The translations under genes and the position numbers were made by a program. A model generated the notes under the pieces. It made no database searches and had not been told where the DNA came from. It worked only from the letters and a program-made list of their open reading frames with translations. Positions 1-55,334 of a stretch of DNA of 56,086 nt are shown one piece after another (the first letter of the stretch is position 1; the number at the start of each line of letters is the position of its first letter). Origin of the DNA: a virus (taxonomy: Duplodnaviria; Caudoviricetes); the IMG/VR virus record IMGVR_UViG_3300020420_000003, positions 1-56,086 of that record, one strand, 5' to 3'.

Positions 1-77
1 CTGAAGATGCTTAACCAAAGAGGAGATTTAAAATGGATAAAGCGATTTTGATAGACCCATTCAATAAGGTTATTGAA
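1..77. repeat. Terminal direct repeat, copy 1 (assembly circularisation overlap)
   Basis: 1-77 is identical to 56010-56086 and the junction falls inside the cassette of ORF 33..446; 77 is a common assembler k-mer. Confidence 0.95.
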
Positions 78-446
78 GAGGTCAACTACGACTACGGCGG
101 AAGCTATACCCAAATCACTGAGTATATCGCAACGCCGGAAGCACCCCGCCCAATGTTCTGCACTGTCAACATTGACGACGAGAACACCATCTATCTAGAT
201 GACGAGGGTTTATACAGGGACACCCAAGCTTACTTTCAGTGGGAGGGATACCACCAACCGCTACAGGGACGCAGTCTGATACTTGGAATCGATTACGAAA
301 CAGGTGAATCAGTTCCGCCCACAATCACCATCGAAAAAGTGAAAGAAGCCGTATCTTTCCGAGGCGACAAGCTTAGAGTGATGCCGCAGTTTGAGGTGCG
401 CTCTTTTAGTGACGATGAATTTAATGAATTTTTGCAATCCCTCTAG
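33..446 (+). CDS. Early protein, DUF3846-like
   Basis: AGAGGAG RBS; AILIDP...IYLDDEGL...PLQG.SLILG.D..GES pattern recalls DUF3846; own promoter (55983) and terminator. Confidence 0.6.
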   Translation: MDKAILIDPFNKVIEEVNYDYGGSYTQITEYIATPEAPRPMFCTVNIDDENTIYLDDEGLYRDTQAYFQWEGYHQPLQGRSLILGIDYETGESVPPTITIEKVKEAVSFRGDKLRVMPQFEVRSFSDDEFNEFLQSL

Positions 447-456
447 GGTGAAGCGG

Positions 457-490
457 AACGGGGCGGGCTTCGGCTCGCCCCGTTTTTTTT
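457..490 (+). terminator. Intrinsic terminator with cUUCGg tetraloop
   Basis: ACGGGGCGGGC-TTCG-GCTCGCCCCGT followed by a T run. Confidence 0.95.
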
Positions 491-493
491 GTG

Positions 494-571
494 TCTGCTG
501 CCGGGGTCCGGAGCTATCCGGGCTGGCTGCCCGGACCAGACGCAAGGCGCAAGGCGGCCCGAGGCGCAGGG
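494..571 (+). repeat. GC-rich repeat island A (GCTGC/CCGG words plus tandem GRCGCAR heptamers)
   Basis: 4 CCGG, 2 GCTGC, then GACGCAA GGCGCAA...GGCGCAG directly before a promoter. Confidence 0.85.
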
Positions 572-600
572 TTGACATATCCCATGTTATGTGGGATAAT
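572..600 (+). promoter_or_regulatory. Sigma70-type early promoter with overlapping TATCCCA-N7-TGGGATA operator-like palindrome
   Basis: TTGACA(572)-17 nt-GATAAT(595), extended -10 TG; inverted repeat 578-598. Confidence 0.9.
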
Positions 601-629
601 ATAAGGGTTAACCAAAGAGGAGTTTAACA

Positions 630-1082
630 ATGACTGAGAAAACCAGAACGCTTTGTTTCCACGCTGACCCCGGGCACGGGTGGCTGGCTGTTCCTATCGA
701 TGAGATACGGGAAGCCAAGCTGTCAATCAGCGGTTACAGTTACATCAACCGAAAAGAAGGCTGTGCATATCTCGAAGAAGATTGCGATGCTATGGTCTTC
801 ATCAACCACCTAAAAAAGAACGACGTGCCGTTTACGATTAGTGAAACGCACAGAAACGACGACCATCCCATCCGGAGCTACGAATACTGGCCCGAGGAAT
901 GGAACCCGAAGTCTGAGTTTTCGGTATCTTTCACGTTAAAGCGTGACAACGAAATGCGCGAACATGATGAAAGTTTTTTTGATGTTCAGCATATAAGAAG
1001 CGAGATTCAAACGTGGTTAAGCGATTTGGATTACGTTGTTTCTGATATCACTATAAATAAAACTGCAAATGGCCGACGTTAA
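630..1082 (+). CDS. Conserved early hypothetical protein (DPGHGWL...YLEEDCD motifs)
   Basis: AGAGGAG RBS; motif pair I recognise from phage/plasmid early-expressed proteins. Confidence 0.75.
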   Translation: MTEKTRTLCFHADPGHGWLAVPIDEIREAKLSISGYSYINRKEGCAYLEEDCDAMVFINHLKKNDVPFTISETHRNDDHPIRSYEYWPEEWNPKSEFSVSFTLKRDNEMREHDESFFDVQHIRSEIQTWLSDLDYVVSDITINKTANGRR

Positions 1083-1398
1083 TTACCAGCAGTATGCAAA
1101 AGATATCGCGGAGGAGATTGTCTTCCGCGATATCGGACCTGATGACGAACCGGAAGACCGGGTGTACGACCTAGCTCATGAGTACGCCGACGGCAGCGAA
1201 CACGTCATCTACTATTACAAAGCGCACCAGTTTCTAGAGTGGCTGGACGCTAGGACAATTGAATATATCGAAGGTGAAATAGAAGCCGGGGGAAGTTTCG
1301 TTGGGTACAACGACCTTGCTTCGAGAATCGCATACTACGCACTGTCCGATATGATTTCTTCTGAAGCTCTAACCTTACTTCAAAACAGTGAATCTTGA
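1069..1398 (+). CDS. Ocr (T7 gp0.3)-like acidic DNA mimic, putative anti-restriction protein
   Basis: 109 aa, about 24 D/E vs 6 K/R; YDLAHEYADGSEHVIYY aligns by eye with Ocr LHDAIHMAADNAVPHYY; early location. Confidence 0.65.
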   Translation: MADVNYQQYAKDIAEEIVFRDIGPDDEPEDRVYDLAHEYADGSEHVIYYYKAHQFLEWLDARTIEYIEGEIEAGGSFVGYNDLASRIAYYALSDMISSEALTLLQNSES

Positions 1399-1403
1399 AC
1401 CGA

Positions 1404-1622
1404 GCCCGGTAGCCAATGACGGCTGCTGGGCCTCCGGACCCGGGGACGGCTGCTGGGGATCAGTCGCAAGGCGCAAGGCGCAGGGCTGCTGCCCGGTGTA
1501 CCGGGTATCCGGAGATCCCGGCTGCTGGATCAAGGCGCAAGGCGCAGGTCAGTCGCAAGGCGCAGGGCTGCCGGGGGACCGTGCTGCCCGGTCAAACATG
1601 AACAAGACGCAAGACGCAAGGT
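1404..1622 (+). repeat. GC-rich repeat island B
   Basis: 9 CCGG, 7 GCTGC (all same strand), 3 GATC, four tandem runs of G(G/T/A)CGCA(A/G). Confidence 0.9.
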
Positions 1623-1965
1623 CAGTCCCCTCCCAAAGTGCTGGAAACTTTAGCCCTTTTTCGTTAAGATTGACCGCATCTCCCCCGTCAAATAAAAATA
1701 GACAAGGCGGCTTGGCCCGTGAAACCAAGAAGAAGGAGACACCCCCAGCCCTAAAATACTGCATATTCCAAGCAATCTGCGAGGGGCGTATGGAAACAGT
1801 GTCACCTTTTGTACACTTTAACTCGCAAAATAGAACTCGCCCTAAATGCGCCATCAAACTGTCAGGGACACCACTACCAGCGCGATTCTCAATCCTTGTG
1901 AGGTGCGTCCCCTTGGGCACTGCGGTCTTCAATCTGAGCCACAGATTCCGTTCCGGTGTTGGCAT
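1549..1965 (-). CDS. PD-(D/E)xK nuclease, Holliday junction resolvase/VRR-NUC-like
   Basis: E..L..RIEN...SGVPD...FCELK...RPSQIAW motifs; start placed at MPTPE. Confidence 0.8.
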   Translation of the reverse strand: MPTPERNLWLRLKTAVPKGTHLTRIENRAGSGVPDSLMAHLGRVLFCELKCTKGDTVSIRPSQIAWNMQYFRAGGVSFFLVSRAKPPCLFLFDGGDAVNLNEKGLKFPALWEGTDLASCVLFMFDRAARSPGSPAPCD

Positions 1966-2446
1966 CAAGTATCTCCTCATACTCTGCTTCAATGAAGGCA
2001 GCGGGATGTTCATCACGAAGCTTGCCAAGTTGAGCAATGATTTCATCTCGGCTGAGTTGGTCGTACGAATGAACGTGTTGATTCTCTCGTCGATCAACAG
2101 TCAGTCCACCCAAACTGGCACGAATTTTTTCAGCGTTGATTGCGGCGGAGAACTGCCCTTCGGATTCAGCATTGTGCGACAGGTCGGACAGTCGTTTGAG
2201 TTGTCCTATCAACGTCACGCCATACTTGCGTTCGCGTTCTTGACGAAGCTCGGCAATATGTTGGGGGACAAGCGGGAAGTCTTTCCCGTTCAAAAGTTTG
2301 TGGGCATACTTGACTGCAACCTTTTGGCTGTACCCTGCCCGTCTCGCGCATTCAGCATTGCTGTACACACCATCAACAATCAGCTTGGCAAATTCTTTCT
2401 GGCGATTGGTCAGCAGACATGCTTTTTCTTCCGTTTCAGGTTCCAT
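1889..2446 (-). CDS. terS: Terminase small subunit
   Basis: LTNRQKEFA...NAECARRAGYS helix-turn-helix typical of TerS; GAGG RBS. Confidence 0.8.
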   Translation of the reverse strand: MEPETEEKACLLTNRQKEFAKLIVDGVYSNAECARRAGYSQKVAVKYAHKLLNGKDFPLVPQHIAELRQERERKYGVTLIGQLKRLSDLSHNAESEGQFSAAINAEKIRASLGGLTVDRRENQHVHSYDQLSRDEIIAQLGKLRDEHPAAFIEAEYEEILDANTGTESVAQIEDRSAQGDAPHKD

Positions 2447-2697
2447 ATTTCCTCGCATGTTTATAATGTTTCCAAGTTTCTGTCAGGCTCTTACGGAAGC
2501 CGTGCCATTTCATCGGGTAATGAACCCAGCCCTTTTTATCACCACGCCAAACAAGGCCAAAGCCCCACGAAGCGGTTGGTGTTTTGCTTTTCCAAAAACT
2601 TAAACGCGGATTCATTTTCACCCCCATATAGTGATTCTCCTGAGTTTATTATAACACATAATAAAGTCACAGATTTCGCGCCATCTATACAAGTATC

Positions 2698-2867
2698 CTG
2701 TTACACCTGTTACACTTTGCACACATCAAGTGTAACAGAAAAACTCTATACAGAACAACGCTATAGACTACGCTGTTACACTGTTACAGCGTTACACCTA
2801 TTTCACAGAATTTGTGGAAACAAAAATCTCACAGAAATAACCTATTGTAACTGTATCGGCGTAACAG
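2698..2867. repeat. Iteron-like array of CTGTTACAC/GTGTAACAG direct and inverted repeats
   Basis: Copies at 2698, 2707, 2773, 2781, 2789 (direct) and 2730, 2845, 2859 (inverted, some degenerate) in the non-coding gap between divergent transcription units. Confidence 0.8.
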
Positions 2868-2874
2868 ATTTCGT

Positions 2875-2928
2875 TTGACATTTCCAATCGATAAGTTATT
2901 CTGATGATATCCCATGATATATGGGCAT
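2875..2928 (+). promoter_or_regulatory. Sigma70-type promoter with downstream TATCCCA-N7-TGGG operator-like site
   Basis: TTGACA(2875)-16 nt-TATTCT; TATCCCATGATATATGGG at 2908-2925. Confidence 0.7.
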
Positions 2929-2945
2929 TATCAAAGAGGAACATT

Positions 2946-3119
2946 ATGAAAAGAATGGATACTATATCAGACGTGTTGTGTGACCTTTATGACCTCCGCA
3001 CTGCGGCGAGGTTGAGAGGTTTTGGAACATTGCCCAAAGACAATGAGGGCACGGAAACGACGATTATGGATTGCATCGAAAACTGCATTGAACAAGTGGA
3101 GGGTTTGACTGATGGATAA
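2946..3119 (+). CDS. Hypothetical protein
   Basis: AGAGGA RBS; first gene of a tightly packed operon. Confidence 0.7.
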   Translation: MKRMDTISDVLCDLYDLRTAARLRGFGTLPKDNEGTETTIMDCIENCIEQVEGLTDG

Positions 3120-3249
3120 GGAAAGCACCGAGATCCACGTTTCGGGAGTCGAGGCTGAAGCAACAGTCTCCCCGGCTGAAGCGATTGCGGACAAGGCTTT
3201 TGAAGCATGGGTCGAGGCCATGGAATTAGAGTTGAAGGAGGCATCATGA
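3112..3249 (+). CDS. Small acidic hypothetical protein (45 aa, not in ORF track)
   Basis: GGAGG RBS; MDKESTEIHV...ELKEAS; stop overlaps next start. Confidence 0.65.
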   Translation: MDKESTEIHVSGVEAEATVSPAEAIADKAFEAWVEAMELELKEAS

Positions 3250-3512
3250 TGGCAAAGAAACGATTACGAGTTATTGAACGAACCACGCTGATTAGCAGTT
3301 ATCTGATTGAAGTCGATGAGGACGCAAATTTGGATGAACTGTTCGATGGCAACGCATGGGAAGAACATGTGTTGAAACCAGTTTATGAAGCAGACCCCCA
3401 CGACACACACATCATAGAAGCATGGGACACGACCATGACAGTTGACGACAATGTTTGGGAACTTGGCAAACACGATATTGAGAAGGTATGGGATAGTGAG
3501 GGTGACTACTAA
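3246..3512 (+). CDS. Acidic hypothetical protein
   Basis: AAGGAGG RBS, ATGA overlap. Confidence 0.75.
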   Translation: MMAKKRLRVIERTTLISSYLIEVDEDANLDELFDGNAWEEHVLKPVYEADPHDTHIIEAWDTTMTVDDNVWELGKHDIEKVWDSEGDY

Positions 3513-3513
3513 A

Positions 3514-3681
3514 ATGGATGAAGATTGGTTCGTAACTGTTTTGGACAAACTCAACGACGTTCAAAACGAAGTGCATTTGCTGATGCAAGATGATTGTGAA
3601 GCGGTGCTTAACCCCGTTGTGGATTTATTGAACAAAGCAGAAGATGCAATATTGGAGATTGAAAAACATGGCAAAATATAA
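3514..3681 (+). CDS. Acidic hypothetical protein
   Basis: Operon packing; start MDEDWF. Confidence 0.65.
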   Translation: MDEDWFVTVLDKLNDVQNEVHLLMQDDCEAVLNPVVDLLNKAEDAILEIEKHGKI

Positions 3682-3898
3682 AGCAACCCCGGCGACAGTC
3701 AAAGCCGTGCTTGACAAACACTACCCGCTGGCTGCTGGGCAGCGCGAAGACGATTCGGTTGCAGTCGCAAGGCTCAAGTCGGGGGCCACAAACTTTACGC
3801 CAGCAGACGCAAGCTACTATTGCAAGCGGCTTGGTGTGAGGTGGCTTCTTGTTAACGGCAGATGGTACGATGATTCCTTCAATCCCCACACGCCATGA
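3668..3898 (+). CDS. Hypothetical protein
   Basis: GGAG RBS; overlaps both neighbours; contains copies of the island words. Confidence 0.65.
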   Translation: MAKYKATPATVKAVLDKHYPLAAGQREDDSVAVARLKSGATNFTPADASYYCKRLGVRWLLVNGRWYDDSFNPHTP

Positions 3899-4083
3899 AA
3901 ACGTATAAGTTCACAGTAGAAAAAGCGTTCTGGAAAGTTATCGAACTCGAGGTTCAGGCACGGAGCGCGGTTCAAGCTAGAGAAATCGTACGCCAACAGG
4001 CGCAAGACGATGTCGATTGGGATGAGGTAGAGGACATGTCTGAATGTCCCTATGCTGATGTACACGAGGAGTTGGTCGGGTGA
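3895..4083 (+). CDS. Small hypothetical protein (DpnD/PcfM-like pattern)
   Basis: MKTYKFTVE...ELEVQARSA..A pattern; ATGA overlap. Confidence 0.55.
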   Translation: MKTYKFTVEKAFWKVIELEVQARSAVQAREIVRQQAQDDVDWDEVEDMSECPYADVHEELVG

Positions 4084-4277
4084 AATATGTTTTCATAATT
4101 TTGTTTTTGCACACACCGAATAATTATTCTGTGTCCGAAGCAATACCAAACATGGAGCCGTTTGAATGTATGGCATACATGAACGCATTTAACATAAACC
4201 CGCTTCATGCTCGAGACGGAAAGTTCGGCGTTTGCATGGCAGTCTATCAAGGAGAACAAGATGCAATTCAACAATAA
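4080..4277 (+). CDS. Small protein with N-terminal hydrophobic segment
   Basis: GAGGAG RBS, GTGA overlap; MKYVFIILFL. Confidence 0.6.
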   Translation: MKYVFIILFLHTPNNYSVSEAIPNMEPFECMAYMNAFNINPLHARDGKFGVCMAVYQGEQDAIQQ

Positions 4278-4491
4278 CAAGCAACAAGGTTCGGGGGTCA
4301 CGATCCGAATGTCTGACAACGAGTACGAAGGGTTGTCGATTGTCGTGAATATGGCACGAGAACAGTTAAACCAGAATTTACTCGAAGGCATATTGTCACC
4401 AAACGATTGCAATCGAGGCACTTTTTTAACACTGAAGAAACTGGCTCACAATGGGCTGCCGTCGAAGGAAAGGATTTCAGAGGATGGATGA
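4261..4491 (+). CDS. Hypothetical protein
   Basis: AAGGAG RBS before MQFNN. Confidence 0.65.
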   Translation: MQFNNNKQQGSGVTIRMSDNEYEGLSIVVNMAREQLNQNLLEGILSPNDCNRGTFLTLKKLAHNGLPSKERISEDG

Positions 4492-4708
4492 TGACATGAA
4501 AGGCGTTCTATTCAAGAACGATAAGGGCGACAACGAAAAGCGTCCCGATATAAAAGGCGAACTCACAATAGAGGGCGTGACATATCAGCTTGCCGCATGG
4601 AAAAATGTGTCAGCCAATGGTAATGTATATTACAGGCTCAAGGCAGAAAAACCTGATGAGCAAATAGAAGAAGCCACGGATGGGTTATTCGGAGGTGCAG
4701 ATGGGTGA
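4484..4708 (+). CDS. DUF736-like small putative ssDNA-binding protein
   Basis: LFKNDK...KRPD.KG...G..Y.LAAWK...G..Y motif. Confidence 0.65.
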   Translation: MDDDMKGVLFKNDKGDNEKRPDIKGELTIEGVTYQLAAWKNVSANGNVYYRLKAEKPDEQIEEATDGLFGGADG

Positions 4709-5129
4709 CATAGTTGATTTCCCACCGAAGCAGGACAAACAAGAGATTCTTGATTTGGCTACGGCAGATTTGCTTTGCACTGTGCCGCTGGATGCAGCTT
4801 TGGTTCCTACAAGGAACAAGTCGCAAGTCTGTTGGCACGGTGTCGCTGCACTGTGGAATCGAGAAAAACTGGAGACAGCACCATACGAGGTGGAGATAAA
4901 ACTAATCGCCGCGTTTTTGTATCCTGTCCATGCCGAAGATATGGCTTCAAGTTTCGGGCCCCCAGTTGAACCAATGCCGGAGCCTGTCATGGGTTTGGTT
5001 GAGGATATGTTGTTGGAGGTAGAAGACCCAAGAACCATGTCCCAAGAACGAATTGAAAAGATTCAAGAGAAAGTCATGGAAGACTTATCTCGAAAGGAAA
5101 ACAATGACAACGAGCCGGAAATACACTGA
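4701..5129 (+). CDS. Hypothetical protein
   Basis: GGAGGT RBS before MGDIVDFP. Confidence 0.7.
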   Translation: MGDIVDFPPKQDKQEILDLATADLLCTVPLDAALVPTRNKSQVCWHGVAALWNREKLETAPYEVEIKLIAAFLYPVHAEDMASSFGPPVEPMPEPVMGLVEDMLLEVEDPRTMSQERIEKIQEKVMEDLSRKENNDNEPEIH

Positions 5130-5295
5130 CCTCGTATTTTTGCGTGACGGAGAACCTGCTGAGTTGTGTATCAGTCAAGAAGACAGATTTACAGTCATAG
5201 AGTTATCCGAAGCGCAGTTGTTCAACATAGTCTGCGATGGCGCAGAGATATTGCGTCGAGAGTTTTCAAGGAGAAGTAGAAATGGCAGAAAATAA
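5104..5295 (+). CDS. Hypothetical protein
   Basis: AAGGA RBS before MTTSRK. Confidence 0.65.
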   Translation: MTTSRKYTDLVFLRDGEPAELCISQEDRFTVIELSEAQLFNIVCDGAEILRREFSRRSRNGRK

Positions 5296-5524
5296 AGTAG
5301 TAATGGGTAGACCTCGTAAGTTCGATGTGACGGTTACGATGTCGTTTGATTTGGACAAGAAAATGTATGATGCTATCGAGGATAAAGCGTATGAAGCGAA
5401 CATGAGCAAGAGCGATTTGATTCGTAGATCTTTGATGGATTATCTTTTCAACCAAGGGGACAGGAGCCCGGTTGTTTGGGAAACGGATGACCGACGAGAT
5501 ATTTGGGAGAGCGACGATGAGTAA
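5282..5524 (+). CDS. Ribbon-helix-helix (CopG-like) transcription regulator
   Basis: GRPRK, then VTMSFDLD strand and YDAIEDKA..ANMSKSDLIRRSL helices. Confidence 0.8.
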   Translation: MAENKVVMGRPRKFDVTVTMSFDLDKKMYDAIEDKAYEANMSKSDLIRRSLMDYLFNQGDRSPVVWETDDRRDIWESDDE

Positions 5525-5645
5525 AGACCACGGCCTTACAAACCTTGTGGCTAATGTAAAGAACACGGAAATATACAGCAACAAAATGACCCGCAAGGTA
5601 ATCGCAGCGGCAGTTTTTTTGATTGTTCTGTTTGCAATAATATGA
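5517..5645 (+). CDS. Small single-TM membrane peptide (42 aa, not in ORF track)
   Basis: MSKDHG...RKVIAAAVFLIVLFAII; overlaps both neighbours. Confidence 0.6.
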   Translation: MSKDHGLTNLVANVKNTEIYSNKMTRKVIAAAVFLIVLFAII

Positions 5646-5872
5646 ACCGGGATGACAAAAGCTGGAGTCCTTGGACTGTCCGATTGGACAAGTCTTTCCC
5701 CAGCTTGAGCAAAAAGAAAAACAAACCCGAGTCAGATTGTGACGCGGTTACTTGTTCCGAGTGTCCCGGCGGACCTCGATGCTGCAATTATGTACGTCGA
5801 GACGAAGACCCATACCCAAGTCAATGGAGATGGATTAACGACGACGGTTATTGGAGCCGGATTCGCCGTTAG
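5642..5872 (+). CDS. Cys-rich hypothetical protein
   Basis: ATGA overlap; C-x4-C-x2-C-x5-CC. Confidence 0.5.
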   Translation: MNRDDKSWSPWTVRLDKSFPSLSKKKNKPESDCDAVTCSECPGGPRCCNYVRRDEDPYPSQWRWINDDGYWSRIRR

Positions 5873-6002
5873 CAGTTGTCGCCTGTCGAATAAGAAATGT
5901 TATTTGACGGGCGATGCTTCTTTCATTTTCTTCCGCAAGAGCTCTAACCTTTTCGTAGGCTTCCATCGGTAAGGCAATCGACTTCCATTTTGTCGTGTCC
6001 AT
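5835..6002 (-). CDS. Arc-like ribbon-helix-helix protein (55 aa, not in ORF track)
   Basis: AAGGA RBS; MDTTKWKSIALPMEAYEKVRALAEENERSIARQITFLI. Confidence 0.75.
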   Translation of the reverse strand: MDTTKWKSIALPMEAYEKVRALAEENERSIARQITFLIRQATTANGESGSNNRRR

Positions 6003-6018
6003 TTGCTAGTCCTTCTAT

Positions 6019-7467
6019 TCATTTAATTTTCAACCACTGACGCATCTCTTCGCCCAAAGCAGCACCCGCAAGTTTTATCTTGTCGCGTAAGGCTCTGACG
6101 ATGTGTTCGTCAACAGTACCTTCGGCAACCAAATCAATGTAGGTGACAGGGTGATTCTGACCAATGCGGTGACAGCGATCCTCTGATTGAACGCGAGTCT
6201 CAAGATTAAAATCATTCGAGTAATAGATCACGGTGTTGGCTGACACGAGGGTCAGACCATACCCGGCTGTTTGTGGATTGCCTACAAAGAACCGGGTTTC
6301 GTGATCCGAGTCACTAAAATTGCGAATCAATTCTTCTCGAGCATCTTCGTTCGTGTCTCCGTAATATGAACCGACAGAACCATAGCCGTATTTTTTGGCT
6401 AATGCTTCTTCGATCCGTTGTATGTCTTTTCGGAACCGCGCCCAGATAATTATCTTGCCGCTTGTTTCTTCGACAGTATCCATCAACGCATCCAGCCGAC
6501 GAGTCGGGATATCAACAAGTGTGCCCTCGTCGTCGATAGGCATATACCCACACAGGATTTGTTGCAGACGCAGAAGCTGTGTCATCGCTTCGGTTGCGAA
6601 TACGGCATCATCTTGCAGAATGACCATTGCGGTTCGGCGCATCGATTCGTACTGCCGTGCTTGCTCTGGATCGAGCGTCACGTTTCGTGTTGTATATGTC
6701 TTCGGCGGTAAGTCGAGGCAATCTTTTTTCAGAACGCGACTCGAGAATCCTTTGATGGTCAAAGATAGCTCGTCCATGTTTCGGTATCCAACAATGTGGT
6801 TGAACGAATGTGCCCCCATGTTCATACGCTTCATGATGGCGTACCGGGCTTGGAACGCATAGAAGTTGTCGTACCCCAACAAGTCAGGGTCAAGGAACCC
6901 GCACTGCGAAAACAAATCCATCGGGCTTTGTGTCACCGGAGATCCGGTAAGAATCCGACGATACCGACAAGACTGCGCCAACCGGGTCACAATCTTTGTG
7001 CGCTTCGCTTTGTGGTTTTTGATGGTGGTGCTTTCGTCCACCGCAAACATAGTCTCACCGTTTTTGTCCATGAACTCGTGGACATAACGAACGCATTTGT
7101 CGCTGACAAACGCTTCGACATTCACCACAAGAACACGCAGTCCATCGTGGTATCTCAACGCATCCATCAATTCTTGTTTCTGTGCTTTGTTCGGGCCTGA
7201 ACGCCACGTTGTAACACAAAGCGGTACACGCTCCGGCATGTGCGCTGGTATCTCTTTCAGCACCCAGTTCCGGTACACACCCTTCGGTGCTACAATAACA
7301 AGTGTCGTGATACGTCCGGCTTCAAACAAGTACGCAGCGTTATCGATCAACACCTTGGATTTGCCGCAACCCATTTCCATGAAGTAGGCATAGTTCGAGC
7401 GTTCAGCACTCTGCTCGAATGCGTCGCGCTGATGTTGGTATGGCTCAGTTCTGTATGCGTATTCCAT
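6019..7467 (-). CDS. SNF2-family (SF2) helicase
   Basis: MEMGCGKS Walker A, VDEST, LTGSP, GYGLTL, QSEDRCHRIGQ motifs. Confidence 0.95.
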   Translation of the reverse strand: MEYAYRTEPYQHQRDAFEQSAERSNYAYFMEMGCGKSKVLIDNAAYLFEAGRITTLVIVAPKGVYRNWVLKEIPAHMPERVPLCVTTWRSGPNKAQKQELMDALRYHDGLRVLVVNVEAFVSDKCVRYVHEFMDKNGETMFAVDESTTIKNHKAKRTKIVTRLAQSCRYRRILTGSPVTQSPMDLFSQCGFLDPDLLGYDNFYAFQARYAIMKRMNMGAHSFNHIVGYRNMDELSLTIKGFSSRVLKKDCLDLPPKTYTTRNVTLDPEQARQYESMRRTAMVILQDDAVFATEAMTQLLRLQQILCGYMPIDDEGTLVDIPTRRLDALMDTVEETSGKIIIWARFRKDIQRIEEALAKKYGYGSVGSYYGDTNEDAREELIRNFSDSDHETRFFVGNPQTAGYGLTLVSANTVIYYSNDFNLETRVQSEDRCHRIGQNHPVTYIDLVAEGTVDEHIVRALRDKIKLAGAALGEEMRQWLKIK

Positions 7468-7492
7468 GCGTATAATCCACGAAAAAAAGTAT

Positions 7493-7528
7493 TTGACATG
7501 GGATAACATATAGCATATACCTTGTCAA
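7493..7528. promoter_or_regulatory. Interdigitated divergent promoters (TTGACA-N24-TGTCAA) with TGGGATA half-site
   Basis: Plus: TTGACA(7493)-17-TATACC; minus: TTGACA(7528)-17-TATCCC. Confidence 0.7.
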
Positions 7529-7533
7529 GTCAG

Positions 7534-7662
7534 GCAGACAACGGGTGATGAGGCATCCGAAAGTTTGCGTCAATCCTGACATTGGGATTCCCTCCCTGAT
7601 GACGTAGACACCCTCACCCAAGCCGTCGGGCTATAAACGCAGAACGTAGAACGTAGAAGGAG
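7534..7662 (+). ncRNA. Putative structured 5' leader of the replication operon
   Basis: Competing helices (7534-7568 hairpin vs 7563-7572 pairing with 7600-7609), possible loop pairing to 7612-7616, then AACGYAG x3 before the RBS. Confidence 0.45.
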
Positions 7663-7670
7663 TGTCCAGA

Positions 7671-8228
7671 ATGAGTGGACTTTTTGATGAGATGGAAGCA
7701 GATGCCAATGCGTTTGCTGATATCAAAACTGAGGATGGCGGCAAGCTGTCCCAACTTATTCGAGCAGCGCAGCATCAAAAGCGGTTGATCGAAGAACACG
7801 AACAAGCCGCGAAAGATGCCAAGGCAGAGCTAAAGCAACTGACTCGTGAGCTTATACCTTCCGAAATGCAAGAGATGGGACTCGAACGAATCGACGTTGA
7901 CGGTAACTCCGTTACGTTGAATCAGTTTGTGTACGCATCGATTCCGGAAGCAAATAAAGCGGAGGCGTTCGCATTCCTCCGTGATATCGGTGAAGACGAC
8001 ATTATCAAGAACGAAGTCAAGGTTCAGTTTGGCAAAGGCCAAGACAACGAAGCTGGTGCGTTCATGGATGATTGTCAGAAAGCCGGACTCGACCCTGAAC
8101 AGAAAACAGCGATACACCCGATGACGTTGCAAGCAACGATTAAGGAATGGCTGAAGCAGGGTCGTGACGTAAACCTCGAATTGTTCGGGGCATACGTTGG
8201 AACAGAAGCGAAGATACGGAGAAAGTAG
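7671..8228 (+). CDS. Conserved replication-module protein (coiled N-terminus, IHPMTL motif)
   Basis: AAGGAG RBS; type of gene I recall directly upstream of phage SSB genes. Confidence 0.75.
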   Translation: MSGLFDEMEADANAFADIKTEDGGKLSQLIRAAQHQKRLIEEHEQAAKDAKAELKQLTRELIPSEMQEMGLERIDVDGNSVTLNQFVYASIPEANKAEAFAFLRDIGEDDIIKNEVKVQFGKGQDNEAGAFMDDCQKAGLDPEQKTAIHPMTLQATIKEWLKQGRDVNLELFGAYVGTEAKIRRK

Positions 8229-9035
8229 ATGAGTGAAAGTAAGGAAGTAGCTACAAAGGCAGAGACAGCCGTTGCTATCCCCAAGGAATTGTTGGGTAGC
8301 TTTGTCGAAGACTCAGGCGCAGGTACTGAGAACATAGGTGCAGATGACATGAAGATTCCGTTTTTACGGATCGCACAGCCTCTGTCCCCCGAGTTGAATA
8401 AGAAGCACGAGAACTTCATCGAAGGCACAGAAGCCGGGACAATATTCAACACGGTTACAAGACAACTCTTTGGGGAAGAAGTAAATGTCATCCCCTGTGG
8501 GTACATCAAGAAATATCTCGAGTTTATTCCTCGAGAAAAGGGCGGCGGGTTTCAAGGCGAACACGCCCCCAACAGTCAAGAGGTGTTGACTGCAATTCGT
8601 GACAAGCAGACAAACAAGGACATCATGACTAACGGTAATGAACTTGTTGTATCTGCACAGCACTATTGCAAGTTTCAAGATCCTGAGACGGGTGGCTGGC
8701 AGTCGGCAATCATCGACATGAAGTCAACAAATCTCAAGATCTCACGCCAATGGAACACCATGATCCAGATGCAAGAAGTGAAACACAAAGGCAAGTTGGT
8801 CAAACTGCCAAGCTTCGGTGTTATCTGGACACTTCGTTCCGAAGAAGCGTCCAATGAAAAAGGTAGATGGAATCAGTGGAAGGTAAGTGGTCGGCAGGGT
8901 TATGTCGAAGACACTGACCTGTACAAAGATTGCAGAGAACTGTCCTCGATGGTCAGTGAGGGCACAGTACAGGCTTCCGATGATCCGGATTTGGATGCCA
9001 ATACGAGTGATAGCGGGGAGGCTATCCCGTTTTAG
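8229..9035 (+). CDS. Single-stranded DNA-binding protein (putative)
   Basis: DMKIPFLRIAQPLSP motif; acidic tail ending in AIPF; replication context. Confidence 0.75.
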   Translation: MSESKEVATKAETAVAIPKELLGSFVEDSGAGTENIGADDMKIPFLRIAQPLSPELNKKHENFIEGTEAGTIFNTVTRQLFGEEVNVIPCGYIKKYLEFIPREKGGGFQGEHAPNSQEVLTAIRDKQTNKDIMTNGNELVVSAQHYCKFQDPETGGWQSAIIDMKSTNLKISRQWNTMIQMQEVKHKGKLVKLPSFGVIWTLRSEEASNEKGRWNQWKVSGRQGYVEDTDLYKDCRELSSMVSEGTVQASDDPDLDANTSDSGEAIPF

Positions 9036-9043
9036 GTAATCCC

Positions 9044-9083
9044 GGGGCAGGGTTTTACCTCTTTGACCCTGCCCCACTTTTTC
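9044..9083 (+). terminator. Intrinsic terminator/attenuator after SSB
   Basis: GGGGCAGGGTT...GACCCTGCCCC then ACTTTTTC. Confidence 0.8.
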
Positions 9084-9094
9084 TAGGATTTGTC

Positions 9095-10627
9095 ATGGAC
9101 AATATACAAAAGTTCATGGCGGCGTTCGCTGGATTCGAAACCGCGCATGGACAGACAACAATTAAAGGTACACGCAAGAACGGCAAGGAAGAAGCCGACT
9201 CTCGTGTTATTAGGACACCGTTAGATGAAACACATATTGAAAGACACTTCGCTGGTGAAATCGGCGCAGGGGCTATACCAATCAACTCTAAGAATCTTTG
9301 TTGTTTCGGTTGCATTGACGTGGATGTTTATCCTCTTGATCATGCTGCTCTCGTCCGCGCTTGTGCTGGCATCGATGTTCCTGCTGTGGTTTGTAGGTCT
9401 AAGTCTGGTGGAGCGCACGTCTATTTCTTTATCGAAGGATGGATTGCCGCATCGGATATGCGCGACAAGCTATCGGAGATTGCTGCGTCTCTTGGTTACG
9501 GTTCGGCGGAAATTTTTCCCAAGCAAGAAAAACTCCTGATTGATCGAGGCGACGTTGGTAACTTTATCAACCTGCCATACTTCGATGTAGACAGAACGCT
9601 TCGCCCCGCTTTCAACTCCAAGGGTAAAGAACTCACTCTCGAGCAGTTTCTAAAATATGTAGACAAGCAACGCATATCTCCTGCGAAGTTTATGGATCTT
9701 CAACTTGGGTCACAGACAGACTTCTTGCCGGAGTGTCCGCCATGTTTGGTCACGCTGACAACAAACGGTATCGGTGAAGGTGGTCGTAACGAAACGATGT
9801 TCAACGTTGGCGTTATGTATCAGAAGATGGACGAGGACAATTGGCCTGACCTGTTGGAGAAACATAACCAACAGTATTGCAAGCCACCACTTCCTGCGTC
9901 AGAGATTGTGCTGATACAAGACCAGCTTCGAAAGAAAGAATATCAATACGGATGTAAGAAGTCCCCGTTGAAAGATTACTGCAACAAGTCATTGTGCCTG
10001 TCTCGTAAGTACGGTGTCGGCAATGGTGCTGGGCGCAGTCTTGAAATCACTGGCATGAGTGTTGTGCTGTCGGAGCCACGAGTTTGGTTTGTTGACATCG
10101 CCGGAGAACGGCTCGAACTCAACAGCGAAGAAGTACAGATGCAACTGAAGTTTGGTCGCGCCTGTCTCGAGCAACTGTCGTGGTTGCCGCCGCGTGTAAA
10201 GGAAGATGATTGGAACACGATGATGAATGCAGCCTTACAGGATTGCATGAAGATCGAAGTGCCGCCGGAACTGACAAACAAAGGACAGTTTCACGAGCTT
10301 TGTGAAGCGTTTTGCACAGGCAGAGTACAAGCAATGAGTCCAGAAGAACTGGTGTTGAACAAGCCATACACAGAGGATGGCAGTGTCTTTTTCAAACTAG
10401 ATGCACTGATGGATTTTCTGAAGGGGCGTGGGTTCACACAATATACCCGGGGGCAGGTGCAGGAAAGATTGAAAGAACTAAACAACGGCGAGTCAACAAG
10501 CACCGTCAAGACATTTACCGACAAGACAAAGAAACGCAAAAGTATTCGCGTGTGGTCTGTGCCGGAGTTCTCGACAGATATCAGCATACCGTCAGTCAAC
10601 ATCCAAGGTGACGAGGTTCCGTTCTGA
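9095..10627 (+). CDS. AEP-family primase with PriCT-like domain
   Basis: IDVD, SKSGGAHVY, GNFINLPY; GEGGRNETMF...PPLPASEI. Confidence 0.85.
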   Translation: MDNIQKFMAAFAGFETAHGQTTIKGTRKNGKEEADSRVIRTPLDETHIERHFAGEIGAGAIPINSKNLCCFGCIDVDVYPLDHAALVRACAGIDVPAVVCRSKSGGAHVYFFIEGWIAASDMRDKLSEIAASLGYGSAEIFPKQEKLLIDRGDVGNFINLPYFDVDRTLRPAFNSKGKELTLEQFLKYVDKQRISPAKFMDLQLGSQTDFLPECPPCLVTLTTNGIGEGGRNETMFNVGVMYQKMDEDNWPDLLEKHNQQYCKPPLPASEIVLIQDQLRKKEYQYGCKKSPLKDYCNKSLCLSRKYGVGNGAGRSLEITGMSVVLSEPRVWFVDIAGERLELNSEEVQMQLKFGRACLEQLSWLPPRVKEDDWNTMMNAALQDCMKIEVPPELTNKGQFHELCEAFCTGRVQAMSPEELVLNKPYTEDGSVFFKLDALMDFLKGRGFTQYTRGQVQERLKELNNGESTSTVKTFTDKTKKRKSIRVWSVPEFSTDISIPSVNIQGDEVPF

Positions 10628-12150
10628 TGAGTACAACAGCATATTTGGGACCACCGGGCACTGGTAAGACGTACACATTAATCAACATTGTGAAGGATGC
10701 TTTGCAAAAAGGTGTGCCGCCAGAGCGAATCGGGTTCGTGTCCTTCAGCAAAAAAGCTACGGAAGAAGCAAGGACTCGGGCTGCTCGTGAATTAAATCTG
10801 GACTACAAGAAGATGGTTCATTTCAGGACACTGCACTCCATGGCGTTCCGACAACTAGACATGAAGATAGATCAGGTGCTCCGCAGTTCTGATTATCGTC
10901 GTCTCGAAATGGAACTTGGTCTGCCTTTTACATCCACTCAATCAATGAACATAAATGACGGAGAGTTCTTCCGTCTTGGTGGCAAGGGCGATATGTACCT
11001 GTCGATATACAACATGGCTCGTGTCAGGAAGATATCTGCCGAACAGCAATTTAACGAGTCGGCAAACTGGACACTGCAACATAATGAGATGCAACATGTC
11101 ATCCGTTCCTACAGAGAATATAAACAAGTCCTTGAAAAGATTGACTTTGTTGATATGATCGAGACGTTTATAGAGCAAGGGGAGGCTCCCGAGTTGGAAC
11201 TTCTGATCGTTGATGAGGCGCAAGATCTTGTTCCGTTACAGTGGGACATGGTTTCCAAACTCGAAAACAACTCCAAAAATGTTTATTACGCCGGAGACGA
11301 TGACCAAGCCATTTATGAATGGATGGGCGTGGACGCACGGCAGTTTGCTAGTCGGTGCAACCAATCAGATAATATGATTGTGTTGGATCAAAGTTTCCGA
11401 GTTCCAAGTTCCGTGCACCAAGAGGCAGACCGCATCATACGAAATGCCGCCGGACGTATCGACAAGGAATGGAACGCTCGAGAACAAGAAGGACATGTAT
11501 CGTATCACTACAAAATAGATGAACTGCCTTTGGAAGAAGGACAATGGATGATACTTGCCCGGACAAACTACATCGCTAACAGGATTGCTACCGACCTCAA
11601 GAACAACGGGTATTTGTTTTGGCGTAACGGCAATGGCTGGAGTATTGCGAATGCTACGCTCGAGGTGGTTCGTGGGTTCACCCGTCTTAGTCGAGGCGAA
11701 GAACTAGACCACGAGTACATATCTAAGATATGGCGTAAGATAAAAGTAGACCGCAAGACTCGAAACGCTGGCAACAAAATGTTGAAAGCCGCAGAAGCAG
11801 AAACGTTTGGCATAGAGTTCTTAGAGTCTCTGACTCAACAACATCTGCAAGAAAAGCACTGGTACGAGGTGTTGGAAGTAAGCGATCAGGAACGTGTGTA
11901 CATCACATCTGTTCTGGAGTCCGGCGAAGTGTTGGACGATGACAATCCCAGAATTGTTCTGTCTACGATACACAAAGCAAAGGGCGGTGAAGCAGACAAT
12001 GTTGCGCTTGTGCTGGAGTCAACCAAGGCTTGCTGCACTATGAGTGAGCCGGATGCCGAACGCAGAGTGTTCTATGTGGGAGCAACAAGAGCGAAGAATA
12101 ATCTATATATTATAGACAACCCGGAAGCTAGGTGGAGGTTCCAACTATGA
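10627..12150 (+). CDS. UvrD/Rep-like SF1 helicase
   Basis: GPPGTGKT, VDEAQD, GDDDQAIY, STIHKAKGGEAD, YVGATRA. Confidence 0.95.
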   Translation: MSTTAYLGPPGTGKTYTLINIVKDALQKGVPPERIGFVSFSKKATEEARTRAARELNLDYKKMVHFRTLHSMAFRQLDMKIDQVLRSSDYRRLEMELGLPFTSTQSMNINDGEFFRLGGKGDMYLSIYNMARVRKISAEQQFNESANWTLQHNEMQHVIRSYREYKQVLEKIDFVDMIETFIEQGEAPELELLIVDEAQDLVPLQWDMVSKLENNSKNVYYAGDDDQAIYEWMGVDARQFASRCNQSDNMIVLDQSFRVPSSVHQEADRIIRNAAGRIDKEWNAREQEGHVSYHYKIDELPLEEGQWMILARTNYIANRIATDLKNNGYLFWRNGNGWSIANATLEVVRGFTRLSRGEELDHEYISKIWRKIKVDRKTRNAGNKMLKAAEAETFGIEFLESLTQQHLQEKHWYEVLEVSDQERVYITSVLESGEVLDDDNPRIVLSTIHKAKGGEADNVALVLESTKACCTMSEPDAERRVFYVGATRAKNNLYIIDNPEARWRFQL

Positions 12151-14117
12151 AGGGCAAGCAATTATCGTTCGAAGAAAAAGATACGGATTGGGAACTTCAG
12201 GCAAAAGAAGTGCCGGAAGAAGACATTCGAGAGGTTGCGTCCATTGCGTTAGACCAAGATTGGACCCCGCCATCTTCATTTCCAGAGCACTACAGAGACG
12301 CAAATGTCATATCAATTGACCTTGAAACCCGTGATCCTAACCTAATGACACTTGGTCCCGGGTGGGCGCGGGATGATGGATACATCATCGGATATGCTGT
12401 GGCGTTCAACGATTTCTGTGGCTACTACCCCATACGTCATGAGGTGGGTGGCAACATGCCAGAGAAAGCAGTGACCGGATATATCAAAGACATGATGAAA
12501 TCAGATGTTCCGAAAGTCATGCACAACGCTCAGTATGATCTTGGGTGGTTGCGTTGGGCGGGCATTGAGGTTCAAGGTCCGGTGTACGATACGATGACTG
12601 CGGCGGCGATGTTGAATGAAAACAGACGCTGGTACAATCTTAATTCTTTGGCTGCTGACTATTTGCAGGAACGAAAAAACGAACGATTGCTCAGACTTGC
12701 TGCTGCTGACTACGGTGTAGATGCCAAGTCGGGCATGTGGCAACTACCTGCCAGATTCGTGGGGCAGTATGCAGAACAAGATGCTTCAGTCACCCGGCGA
12801 CTTTGGGAACGATTACAGCCTGATTTGATACGCGAGGAAGTGTCCAGCATTTTTGATTTAGAAACAGAGCTGACCCCCATGCTTTTGAATATGCGGTGGC
12901 GTGGTGTTCGTGTGGACGAGGCAGGTGCTGAGAATGCTCGAAAGCTCTTGGAGAAACGCGAAAAAGAAATACACAAATGGATAAAGGACGAGACGGGACT
13001 GACGGTGGAACCGTGGAATGCTACGTCCCTGTCGAAAGCGTTCGATAAGATGAAAGTTGCGTACCCACGCACGGAGAAAACAGATGCTCCATCTTTTACA
13101 AAACAGTTTCTTGCTTCGCACGAGCATCCGTTGGCTCAACAGATTGTACGGCTACGAGAACTCAACAAAGCAAACACTACATTCATTTCAAATATATTGA
13201 AGTTTACTCACAAAGGACGCATTCATGCGGAGTTTCATCCTCTTAGGTCTGACGACGGTGGCACTGTTACCGGGCGTTTTTCTTCTTCAAACCCAAACCT
13301 TCAGCAAATTCCAGCACGAGATCCTGAGATTAAGTCAATCATCCGTGGGTTGTTTCTGCCTGAAGAAGGTGAGAAGTGGGGTAGCTTCGACTACGCATCA
13401 CAAGAGCCACGTTGGTTAGCACATTACTGTGCTTCTATCAGCGGTGTGCATCGTCACCCATCCATCGATGATGTGGTTGAGCAGTATCAAAACGATGATG
13501 CAGACTTTCATCAAATGGTTGCGGACATGGCTGGTATCTCTCGCAAAGATGCCAAGACGGTGAACTTAGGTATCATGTACGGCATGGGCGTAAATAAGAT
13601 GGCGGGTGTGCTGGACACTACGGTTGAAGAGGCCAAGGAGCTTTTGAACGAATACCATGACAAAGTTCCATTTGTTCGAGGGCTGGCAAACATGGTGTCC
13701 AATCATGCGTCTGAGAACGGGCAAATTAGAACTATTCTAGGAAGGAAGTGCCGCTTCCCGCTTTGGGAGCCGAAGACATTTGGCATACACAAACCGCTTC
13801 CGTTAGAAGAGGCAGTGCGAGAACACGGCAGGACATCAATTAAACGTGCGTTTACTTACAAAGCGTTGAACAGATTGATCCAAGGTTCGAGTGCCGACCA
13901 GACAAAGAAAGCGATGATAGATTGCTATAAAGCAGGGTATTTGCCGATGTTGCAGGTGCACGATGAACTATGTTTCAGCATCGATGCTGACGAATTAGGA
14001 AACCCAAATGAAAATCAAATCACGGAGATTGCCCGTATCATGGAAGGATGTGTTGAAGCAAAAGTTCCTTTCAAAGTGGACTGCTCTATCGCAGACAACT
14101 GGGGGCAAGTGGATTAG
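12147..14117 (+). CDS. polA: Family A DNA polymerase with 3'-5' exonuclease (Leu762 type)
   Basis: IDLET, HNAQYD, TGRFSSSNPNLQQIP, DYASQEPR, KTVNLGIMYGMG, QVHDEL. Confidence 0.97.
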   Translation: MKGKQLSFEEKDTDWELQAKEVPEEDIREVASIALDQDWTPPSSFPEHYRDANVISIDLETRDPNLMTLGPGWARDDGYIIGYAVAFNDFCGYYPIRHEVGGNMPEKAVTGYIKDMMKSDVPKVMHNAQYDLGWLRWAGIEVQGPVYDTMTAAAMLNENRRWYNLNSLAADYLQERKNERLLRLAAADYGVDAKSGMWQLPARFVGQYAEQDASVTRRLWERLQPDLIREEVSSIFDLETELTPMLLNMRWRGVRVDEAGAENARKLLEKREKEIHKWIKDETGLTVEPWNATSLSKAFDKMKVAYPRTEKTDAPSFTKQFLASHEHPLAQQIVRLRELNKANTTFISNILKFTHKGRIHAEFHPLRSDDGGTVTGRFSSSNPNLQQIPARDPEIKSIIRGLFLPEEGEKWGSFDYASQEPRWLAHYCASISGVHRHPSIDDVVEQYQNDDADFHQMVADMAGISRKDAKTVNLGIMYGMGVNKMAGVLDTTVEEAKELLNEYHDKVPFVRGLANMVSNHASENGQIRTILGRKCRFPLWEPKTFGIHKPLPLEEAVREHGRTSIKRAFTYKALNRLIQGSSADQTKKAMIDCYKAGYLPMLQVHDELCFSIDADELGNPNENQITEIARIMEGCVEAKVPFKVDCSIADNWGQVD

Positions 14118-14234
14118 ATCCAAGTTTCAGTATCTGATGACAAAGCGTTGGTTTCGGATACTGCTGGGCTTGTATGTAATTCGTTGGGTTATACGAATTG
14201 GAATTATTTTTTACGGAATGTGGTGGTACTTCTC

Positions 14235-20568: not shown

Positions 20569-20569
20569 T

Positions 20570-40662: not shown

Positions 40663-40667
40663 TTTAA

Positions 40668-54352: not shown

Positions 54353-54359
54353 GGGCCGA

Positions 54360-55297: not shown

Positions 55298-55334
55298 CGA
55301 GATGTTTCATCCATTAACTAGAGAGGATATAGAT

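Follow-up and report, generated by a model that had tools for sequence, protein, structure and literature searches.

Tandem heptad arrays in the early region of a marine podophage: candidate operator or insulator sites at cassette boundaries

Introduction

Three GC-rich islands built of short repeated words lie in the early region of a marine podophage, and they raise the question of what such DNA does among the early genes. The phage is represented by IMG/VR record IMGVR_UViG_3300020420_000003, all 56,086 bases of which were analysed and are called the window here. An original prediction, made from the letters alone, placed the islands at 55891-55975 (island A), 494-571 (island B0), and 1404-1622 (island B), and took them for a cis-acting system on the first-entering DNA, such as Chi-like nuclease attenuators, oriented translocase or ejection signals, or decoy pads for host restriction enzymes. 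When the islands were compared with those of related phages, the sequences indicated that only the tandem heptad G-N-C-G-C-A-R is conserved across them. We tentatively propose that arrays of this heptad are sequence-specific operator or insulator sites that dock a putative, probably phage-encoded protein, a reading that we regard as quite possible though somewhat short of probable. A literature search for heptamer repeats associated with early promoters returned nothing relevant, and no description of the element was found in it.

Three islands built from one module

All three islands were present in the sequence where they had been placed, with a GC content of 75%, 76%, and 68% respectively, compared to 46% in the genome. 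Word counts in the 382 island bases were compared with those in 2000 dinucleotide shuffles of the islands themselves. The heptad, written as DDCGCAR, occurred 16 times in the islands versus 1.04 times in the shuffles, none of which reached 16. The counts of GCTGC (11 versus 2.0), CCGG (16 versus 4.7), and CCSGG (16 versus 3.1) were likewise reached in none of the 2000 shuffles, and those of GATC (5 versus 0.8) and GGWCC (5 versus 0.9) in one and two of them. The expected excess of all six words over background was therefore borne out. Every island heptad and every island GCTGC lay on the plus strand (GCAGC was absent), as the strand-resolved counts confirmed, and the tally given earlier for island B (9 CCGG, 7 GCTGC, and 3 GATC) agreed with both the sequence and the position lists. 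Part of the CCGG and GCGC excess accompanied an avoidance of GGCC (2 versus 6.7 expected) and CGCG (0 versus 4.7 expected) inside the islands.

Tandem Repeats Finder (TRF) located period-7 arrays at 541-556, 1465-1486, 1531-1568, 1603-1620, and 55936-55975, together with an unrelated one at 7636-7658, and over the whole genome it found no further array of the island heptad beyond the islands. Heptamers outside the islands, which had been noted as strays of the same system, were at chance level and unpolarised, with 59 DDCGCAR matches on the plus strand versus 75 on the minus strand. Within the islands the words followed a module grammar of two GCTGC-C/T-N-GG boxes, then GATCA, then heptads. 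Moreover, GCTGCCCGG occurred five times in the islands, whereas the rest of the genome held no copy on the plus strand and one on the minus strand. The islands are copies of a single module that have diverged; the original prediction was right about the shared words, but not in its view that the islands are not copies of each other.

The same 77 bases stand at both ends of the window, which is therefore a circular assembly of about 56,009 bp. The features of the early region and its borders are listed here in circular order.

52874-54388, minus strand: large terminase (TerL) gene
55269-55297, plus strand: promoter-like site without an island, heading the early region, with an A/T-rich upstream stretch instead of heptads
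55302-55796, plus strand: first early cassette gene, product acidic, pI 4.6
55858-55890, plus strand: intrinsic terminator of gene 55302-55796, directly before island A, with a GC hairpin and a T run
55891-55975, plus strand: island A, with a GC-rich word block (55891-55936), then heptad pairs (55937-55950 and 55961-55974)
55983-56011, plus strand: putative promoter for gene 33-446, with the -35 box TTGACA at 55983-55988
33-446, plus strand: cassette gene, product acidic, with a sub-threshold DUF3846 match (E 6e-4)
455-493, plus strand: intrinsic terminator after gene 33-446, with a 14-pair stem and a T run
494-571, plus strand: island B0, with a GC word block, then heptads (539-552 and 563-569)
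572-600, plus strand: sigma-70-type promoter (TTGACA, 17 nt, TG-n-GATAAT), 11 of 12 consensus matches
630-1082 and 1069-1398, plus strand: cassette genes, products acidic
1404-1622, plus strand: island B, with three successive modules of word block and heptads
1549-1980, minus strand: Hjc-like Holliday-junction resolvase gene, unannotated, of the PD-(D/E)XK type, overlapping the 3' end of the TerS-like gene
1889-2458, minus strand: gene of a small terminase (TerS)-like helix-turn-helix protein (Pfam Terminase_2, E 3.7e-6; phrog_51, 3.9e-12)

Islands A and B0 each lie between an intrinsic terminator and a promoter-like site with the -35 sequence TTGACATATCC. The terminator at 55858-55890 folds as a hairpin of the 18-bp class and is kept in L001, a relative with 98% TerL identity; it was absent from the list of a simple scan. 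The word block of island A contains GCTGCCCGG at 55896 and 55922 and two GATC, and 8 nt separate its last heptad from the -35 box. The site at 55983-56011 is a near-identical second copy of the site at 55269-55297 and is identical in L001. Its -10 element departs from consensus, and neither promoter scan scored it. The promoter at 572-600 begins 2 nt past the last B0 heptad and drives genes 630-1082 and 1069-1398. The heptads of island B are at 1463-1483, 1534-1547, 1552-1565, and 1606-1619. No early TTGACATATCC-type promoter follows this island, and the nearest promoter-like match past it (1670-1699, 9 of 12 consensus matches) is within the resolvase coding region. The description of the islands as intergenic needs amending for positions 1549-1622 of island B, which are the 3' coding end of the resolvase gene on the minus strand.

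All four cassette proteins are acidic (pI 4.05-5.1), and none gave a firm family match in profile searches that included Pfam and phrog. An 'Ocr-like' neighbour had been proposed, which was accurate as to acidity (pI 4.05) and unsupported by any family match. Three of the four cassette genes were found by tblastn only in the closest relatives, and gene 33-446 in 8 loci. A structured RNA was rejected as the basis of the islands. Islands A and B0 gave folding z-scores of -2.5 to -3.6 because of the terminator hairpins alone, pieces of island B gave -0.94 to +0.92, and Rfam had no match inside the islands.

Conservation and polarity of the heptad in relatives

In IMG/VR at least 598 relatives were confirmed by TerL, and the best 80 of them were kept as the locus set for counts (L001-L080). 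Tandem NNCGCAR arrays numbered 254 on the strand opposite TerL versus 1 on the TerL strand. They were found in 62 of the 80 loci, and many of the other 18 have little DNA upstream of TerL. All arrays lay within the hypervariable region bounded by TerL on one side and the TerS/resolvase genes on the other. Islands at the same position in relatives had been named as a check of the original idea, and these counts showed that a strand-polarised cis feature, confined to the early region, is conserved there. In four relatives that are 97-100% complete, 26 of 26 CGCAGGNCGCAG matches were on one strand of each genome and spanned approximately 0.6-1.5 kb upstream of TerL; a fifth genome gave no CGCAGGNCGCAG match when scanned.

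The arrays contained 2-7 copies, mostly 2-3. With two units only in 172 of the 254 arrays, there were too few G runs for G-quadruplex arrays, which were ruled out. When period-7 runs were collected without regard to sequence, the unit obtained was G(84%)-N-C(95%)-G(97%)-C(98%)-A(98%)-G/A(84%/14%). Across 189 pairs of adjacent units the mismatches by position were 31, 89, 13, 7, 6, 7, and 11, with the free position 2 accounting for 89 of 164 and positions 1 and 3-7 fixed at 84-98%. The surroundings of the arrays also recurred. Of the 254 arrays, 154 had a crude intrinsic terminator 140 nt or less upstream. Promoter-like sites followed 26 of 131 islands versus 14 of 655 random positions at equal score (about 10-fold), the gaps to the -35 box clustered at 1, 8-10, and 14 nt, and a plus-strand gene start came after 84 of the 131 islands.

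Between the window and L001 the terminator, heptads, and promoter were approximately 90-100% identical. In island A, which is non-coding, the heptads of the two phages differed at position 2 only, and the GC block was unalignable. In more distant clades the GC block is replaced by GCGGCGGCG-type blocks or by A/T-rich 'tatatagag' spacers. L004 (91% TerL identity) replaces nearly the whole early interval. Its homology with the window breaks at 54437 and 1676, and nothing is shared beyond TerL, a 44-bp patch of heptads and promoter, and the resolvase/TerS block. Near the breakpoint at 54437, the gap upstream of TerL also contains a degenerate period-7 run on the plus strand (54450-54469; AGAAGCA, AGACGCA, AAACGC).

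Window DNA was present in marine runs from 10 studies, and populations were compared through assembled contigs, the form taken by all 24 runs available. Contigs from two seawater runs of 2024 matched window positions 45-797, 229-1104, 1084-1584, and 1094-1971; the differences were 0-1 substitutions and, within a T run, one 1-base gap. Within the same strain the heptad copy number was unchanged between 2014 and 2024 over about 1.6 kb of contigs. No ends of DNA molecules were visible in the contigs. In a population of approximately 90-95% identity, island B had 17 differences in 327 nt versus 28-37 in about 325 nt of the adjacent gene. The sole variant in the heptad zone of island B was a minor one, seen in one low-depth X3 contig and lacking 3 nt and 1 nt at 1549 and 1553. 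The diverged X6 population had 1-2-nt changes in the B0 block and 1-nt deletions in the preceding T run. This small amount of change suggested that the heptads are stable, not hypermutable, on that time scale.

Chi-like, KOPS-like, and restriction-related words

Chi sites and the FtsK-orienting polar sequences (KOPS) occur as single octamers that are scattered with a skew over whole chromosomes. The window resembles them in having short, G-rich, orientation-dependent words, and the strict polarity of the heptads would suit nuclease attenuators, translocase guides, or ejection signals. The phage units differ, however, in being tandem heptads confined to about 2 kb, without genome-wide skew. The Chi-like octamer GCTGCTGG occurred genome-wide 5 times on the plus strand versus 10 times on the minus strand, whereas the conserved unit is a tandem 7-bp repeat with a free position that abuts -35 boxes. 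CGCAGGG, which lies within the KOPS-like word, was found 4 times in the islands and once per strand elsewhere, and CGCAGG in the whole genome 11 times on the plus strand versus 13 on the minus strand, with 5 of the plus copies in islands. Neither the Chi-like octamer genome-wide nor CGCAGG outside the islands was polarised, and neither proposal was supported.

The word blocks are built of short palindromes of the kind that restriction enzymes target, which would favour decoy pads. The islands of L001 (791-2590) point the same way, with 11 CCWGG in 620 bp of islands versus 2 in 5.9 kb outside. The L001 islands escape CCWGG avoidance. The window has CCSGG where they have CCWGG, and we tentatively read CCNGG as a recurring word whose centre is S in the window lineage. 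In the window itself, however, six palindromes (CCWGG, CTGCAG, CAGCTG, CCGCGG, TGCGCA, and ATGCAT) had 0 copies, islands included, and for CCWGG a Markov model expected about 61. The words enriched in the islands were mostly not avoided elsewhere, with observed/expected ratios genome-wide of 1.01 for CCGG and 0.98 for GCTGC, compared to 0.38 for GGCC. Since the islands share the avoidance of the genome and their enriched words are unavoided elsewhere, a decoy role in the window genome is argued against. In addition, sister strains keep the heptads but have scrambled word blocks, and the heptads stand at fixed distances from -35 boxes. Attenuators, guides, ejection signals, and decoy pads alike are thus most improbable. 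The restriction-avoidance signature was strong in its own right and differed between relatives, with CCWGG counts of 0 (G002), 0 (G003), 1 (G004), and 43 (G001).

A tentative role as operator or insulator arrays

In the reading that we put forward, the functional core would be G-N-C-G-C-A-R in 2-7 contiguous direct copies, on which a DNA-binding protein would dock. The arrays would mark the boundaries of early accessory cassettes, after each intrinsic terminator and directly upstream of the -35 box of the next host-type promoter, at a spacing to that box that is approximately in 7-bp phase. A terminal cluster would stand at the point where early transcripts run up against the convergent, late TerS-resolvase operon. 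Binding may set the timing of the cassette promoters, giving rise to a delayed-early class, and may shield the cassettes from read-through. The GC word block would be a fast-evolving spacer, constrained in composition and restriction-site avoidance and not in exact sequence. That a protein binds, and with what effect, we infer from the anatomy, polarity, conservation, per-position constraint, and lineage-specific words that were observed.

The closest mechanistic precedent is the omega heptads of plasmid pSM19035. According to the accessible part of one source, contiguous 7-bp repeats lie at promoter regions of pSM19035, one ribbon-helix-helix (RHH) dimer binds per heptad, and at least two adjacent repeats are needed for tight binding by omega (PMC9499535). 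The phage arrays are similar to these operators/parS sites of omega (ParB-pSM, an RHH protein) in that contiguous, non-palindromic 7-bp repeats form several arrays per replicon, in part at promoters, with a unit too short for one helix-turn-helix monomer per repeat. Two or more contiguous units are present throughout, 2-3 in the window and up to 7 in relatives. The array abuts a promoter at islands A and B0 and at gp33/gp34 of the Pelagibacter phage HTVC027P, and does not at island B. Omega arrays have 7-10 heptads in mixed orientation, inverted as well as direct, with the reader encoded adjacent, whereas the phage arrays have 2-7 heptads in direct orientation only (254 arrays to 1), and no reader was found alongside. 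The GC block in front, the terminator upstream, and the location of one cluster over a coding region further distinguish the phage arrays from omega.

By TerL identity, the nearest named records were the metagenome-assembled DSL-LC04 (61%) and the Pelagibacter phages HTVC027P (60%) and HTVC023P (54%). HTVC027P (36% GC) is laid out in the same way, its heptad being CAAGCNN. Ahead of both gp34 and gp33 a CAAGCNN array runs directly into the TTGACA box, a promoterless triple array follows, and of 17 CAAGCNN matches in the genome 16 share one strand and a stretch of 1.2 kb. In the 396 bp before gp34 the GC content is 50%, compared to 36% overall, and GATC occurs 7 times. DSL-LC04 has heptads of the GGCCCGT/GTGGGCC type in a CCWGG-rich block of 71% GC just upstream of TerL. 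Whether the words change with lineage had been posed as a check at the outset, and they do: GNCGCAR in the window clade, CAAGCNN in HTVC027P, and the GGCCCGT/GTGGGCC type in DSL-LC04. Such a lineage-specific word points to a co-evolving, probably phage-encoded reader.

Published expression data were available for HTVC027P, and the following is drawn from the accessible part of that source (PMC12753301). In RNA sequencing of infection, exactly gp33 and gp34 made up 'extra cluster 2', with a peak at 6-9 h post-infection, a class later than that of the divergent early gene gp35 (PMC12753301). In the raw counts, the columns of which have no headers, the third triplicate gave about 100-160 for gp34/gp33 and about 13,000-17,000 for gp35, and the fourth triplicate 5,200-25,000 for gp34/gp33 (PMC12753301). 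This delay is notable, in that gp33 and gp34 have consensus -35/-10 promoters and are 0.5 kb from gp35.

Several results weigh against a role as operators or insulators. Consensus -35/-10 promoters should not need an activator, and the delay in HTVC027P could therefore have another cause. A good E. coli-type promoter was found downstream of only the 26 islands, of 131, counted above. Island B and its homologues have no early-type promoter behind them, and because their arrays overlap a real coding region, the conservation of island B is confounded by protein constraint. HTVC023P and 023Pt_psg01 showed no such arrays on scanning. No reader protein was found among the RHH_1, RHH-like, and TerS candidates. 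The TerS-like gene is convergent with the early cassettes, and its protein, with tblastn matches in 56 loci, was the only family-wide match among the early-region proteins queried by tblastn. It was rejected as the reader of heptad position 7, since L007 (CGCAA) and L010 (CGCAG) have the same type of recognition helix. The open reading frame (ORF) at 5282-5524 on the plus strand matches Pfam RHH_1 with 25.7 bits, and was rejected as a family reader with no tblastn match in the loci and 0 of 5 relatives above the cut-off. A 55-residue minus-strand ORF (5835-6002), which relatives keep downstream of their SNF2 helicase gene, appeared RHH-like by eye, with a weak RHH_1 match (13.7 bits) on its G003 homologue. 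Changes in its strand residues do not follow those in the heptad word, and the promoter next to this gene in relatives has lineage-specific inverted repeats, not heptads.

A resolvase gene across island B

The ORF at 1549-1980 matched phrog_2165, and a profile search led to Hjc (4tkd, E 0.007). Its AlphaFold2 (AF2) model had a mean pLDDT of 89, with blocks over residues 91-130 at 96-97, and the top Foldseek matches were Hjc and ST1444 (140 columns, E 1e-5). The invariant residues P39-D40 and E53-L54-K55 were taken as a PD...ELK form of the motif. With a predicted PD-(D/E)XK fold and this motif in a protein of the Hjc size (about 120-145 residues), the ORF appears to be of the Hjc type. The codons of the last approximately 45 residues lie in the complement of island B (1549 to about 1684) and include the heptads at 1552-1565 and 1606-1619, and a helix is predicted at residues 121-134, over the heptads at 1606-1619. 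The ORF was found in 33 sequences (the window and 32 of the 80 relatives), and in all 33 it runs 41-62 codons past the core, through the arrays. Compared to the core, the tail had a lower third-position excess (1.3-fold versus 2.2-fold) and a lower ratio of synonymous to non-synonymous changes (1.3:1 versus 2.9:1), a weak coding signature that fits double constraint. A conserved cis element on the folded C-terminus of an opposite-strand resolvase would be an unusual dual constraint. The conserved 'GTCAAATAAAAATA' after island B was rejected as a further cis element; it is opposite-strand coding for LFLFDG, the end of the resolvase core.

HTVC027P likewise has an unannotated resolvase ORF (record positions 16171-16587; L202:7683-8099, plus strand), the tail of which is the complement of its own CAAGCNN arrays. 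If this reading is true, 'gp32' of that record was called on the wrong strand, across the repeats. A resolvase is also present in DSL-LC04, HTVC023P, and 023Pt_psg01, with a non-repetitive tail in each, and in DSL-LC04 the arrays are 4 kb away from it.

The overlap raises the possibility that the arrays have no present function. The promoter-side heptads would then be relic duplications of the resolvase 3' end, carried along with cassettes, and only the copies inside the tail would be constrained, via the protein. The tail does appear to be a genuine folded part of the protein by AF2 and Foldseek, and the arrays encode it in each of the 33 sequences and in HTVC027P. The weak coding signature of the tail does not suit this explanation, nor do the non-coding arrays, which hold the same six fixed positions in up to 7 copies, nor the DSL-LC04 arrays that lie so far from a resolvase with no repeats in its tail. 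We consider a lack of function very unlikely.

The genes that flank the arrays also suggest packaging or concatemer processing, with the arrays as recognition sites of the small terminase (pac) or in a T7-like role beside a terminal repeat. The arrays are located between terS and terL in all three lineages (DSL-LC04, HTVC027P, and the window), with the largest island coming immediately after the TerS-resolvase operon. A translocase that moves in one direction would be suited by polar repeats, and in at least 9 of the 80 relatives the contig breaks off 400 bp or less upstream of TerL. Such breaks are, however, equally explained by microdiversity. A pac site is normally single, whereas here at least 3 separate islands extend over about 1.8 kb, each at a terminator-promoter junction, and the recognition helix of TerS does not covary with the heptad variant. 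In T7, Dunn and Studier reportedly described in 1983 arrays of short, irregularly spaced repeats flanking a defined terminal repeat. We take the likeness to be that, in a podovirus, same-orientation heptamer-type words cluster in non-coding DNA before the early promoters used by host RNA polymerase. The repeats of the window phage differ in being strictly contiguous and in recurring at each cassette boundary. Packaging is, on balance, quite unlikely as the role of the arrays.

Arrays as possible sites of cassette exchange

A further alternative regards the arrays, with the repeated promoters and terminators, as homology patches through which accessory cassettes are gained, lost, and swapped, the arrays having arisen from the 3' end of the neighbouring resolvase gene and being homogenised with it. 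Selection would favour direct orientation, as copies in opposite orientation would flip the intervening DNA. The interval is indeed hyperplastic, with only the TerS-like protein widespread among its products (56 loci) and the resolvase in 32 of 80, and L004 keeps the heptad-plus-promoter patch while exchanging nearly everything between its two breakpoints. Moreover, the terminal array overlaps the resolvase tail in both the window clade and HTVC027P although their words differ, a pattern that would be consistent with every lineage copying its word from the 3' end of its own resolvase gene, and island B resembles three promoterless, empty modules.

The promoter-early stem-loop (PeSL) cassettes provide a precedent for such exchange and are the closest architectural precedent for the arrays. 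In the T4-type phages RB49 and phi1, as the accessible part of the source describes, units of a strong sigma-70-like promoter and a stem-loop accompany non-essential early genes and cassette replacement (PMC2839356). Repeated promoter and terminator modules punctuate a hyperplastic early region in both systems; in the window these are the terminators at 455-493 and 55858-55890 and the promoter-like sites at 572, 55983, and 55269, in the hypervariable region. PeSL units differ in having neither heptad array nor GC block, in placing the promoter before the stem-loop, and in belonging to an unrelated lineage of myoviruses. In the modules described here the terminator comes first, then the promoter, and recombination at the arrays is conjectural.

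Neutral scars of recombination should decay like the GC block, whereas six of the seven heptad positions are kept in non-coding DNA. The unchanged copy number between 2014 and 2024 also speaks against ongoing exchange, and action of the resolvase on the arrays is only putative. The population contigs held no evidence of mini-circles or recombinant junctions. Exchange through the arrays is unlikely, though less so than packaging, and it is compatible with an operator role, not exclusive of it.

An integron-like cassette system in a lytic phage would be a bolder form of this idea, and an improbable one. The arrays would serve as recombination sites for the Hjc-like resolvase or a partner, in the capture, excision, and reordering of [array-promoter-gene-terminator] cassettes. 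Were it true, the arrays would also gate the firing of cassettes that encode host-takeover or anti-defence proteins, and the word of each lineage would be matched to its own enzyme.

The phage, its relatives, and other features

The window is a complete, circularly assembled genome of a marine podophage, a distant kin of HTVC023P-type pelagiphages, and IMG/VR classes the record as 100% complete with direct terminal repeats. It encodes an SU10-type portal and adaptors, a capsid protein, a family A DNA polymerase, an archaeo-eukaryotic primase (AEP), and UvrD-type and SNF2 helicases; no tRNA was found in the window. Bases 1-6000 had no Megablast match among 50,697 phage records. An exact 15-mer scan of IMG/VR was unspecific, returning mostly GC-rich unrelated contigs, and was used for no count. 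Published work on HTVC023P-type phages (PMC9599517 and a 2019 preprint) contains, in its accessible parts, no relevant passage on these repeats or promoters.

Phages of this family abound in marine viromes, as the number of TerL relatives in IMG/VR attests. Its early genes, probably for host takeover or anti-defence, are hypervariable, and the heptad arrays are the one conserved landmark of their region. With the arrays as a guide, the limits of cassettes and promoters could be set simply in thousands of uncultured genomes. The arrays also suggest a putative regulator, for which HTVC027P on Pelagibacter HTCC1062 would be a cultivable test system.

Some other features of the window were recorded. 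Positions 2690-2800 contain TGTTACA-type repeats (TRF period 9 at 2697-2715 and period 8 at 2769-2797) and are a candidate operator. They form the divergent control region between the operon of a 63-residue ORF, TerS, and the resolvase on one side and a plus-strand promoter at 2875 on the other. The SNF2-RHH module of the window is inverted relative to G001-G003. The period-7 array at 7636-7658 consists of AACGCAG followed by two AACGTAG units and runs into the Shine-Dalgarno sequence of a DUF7307 (Pam3 gp33-like) gene, in the gap between this gene and the divergent SNF2 helicase gene; relatives are without an array there. Finally, the Rfam Mu-gpT-DE RNA (RF03012) was matched at 40660-40711 on the minus strand, just downstream of the major capsid gene, with 51.1 bits versus a gathering score of 49.

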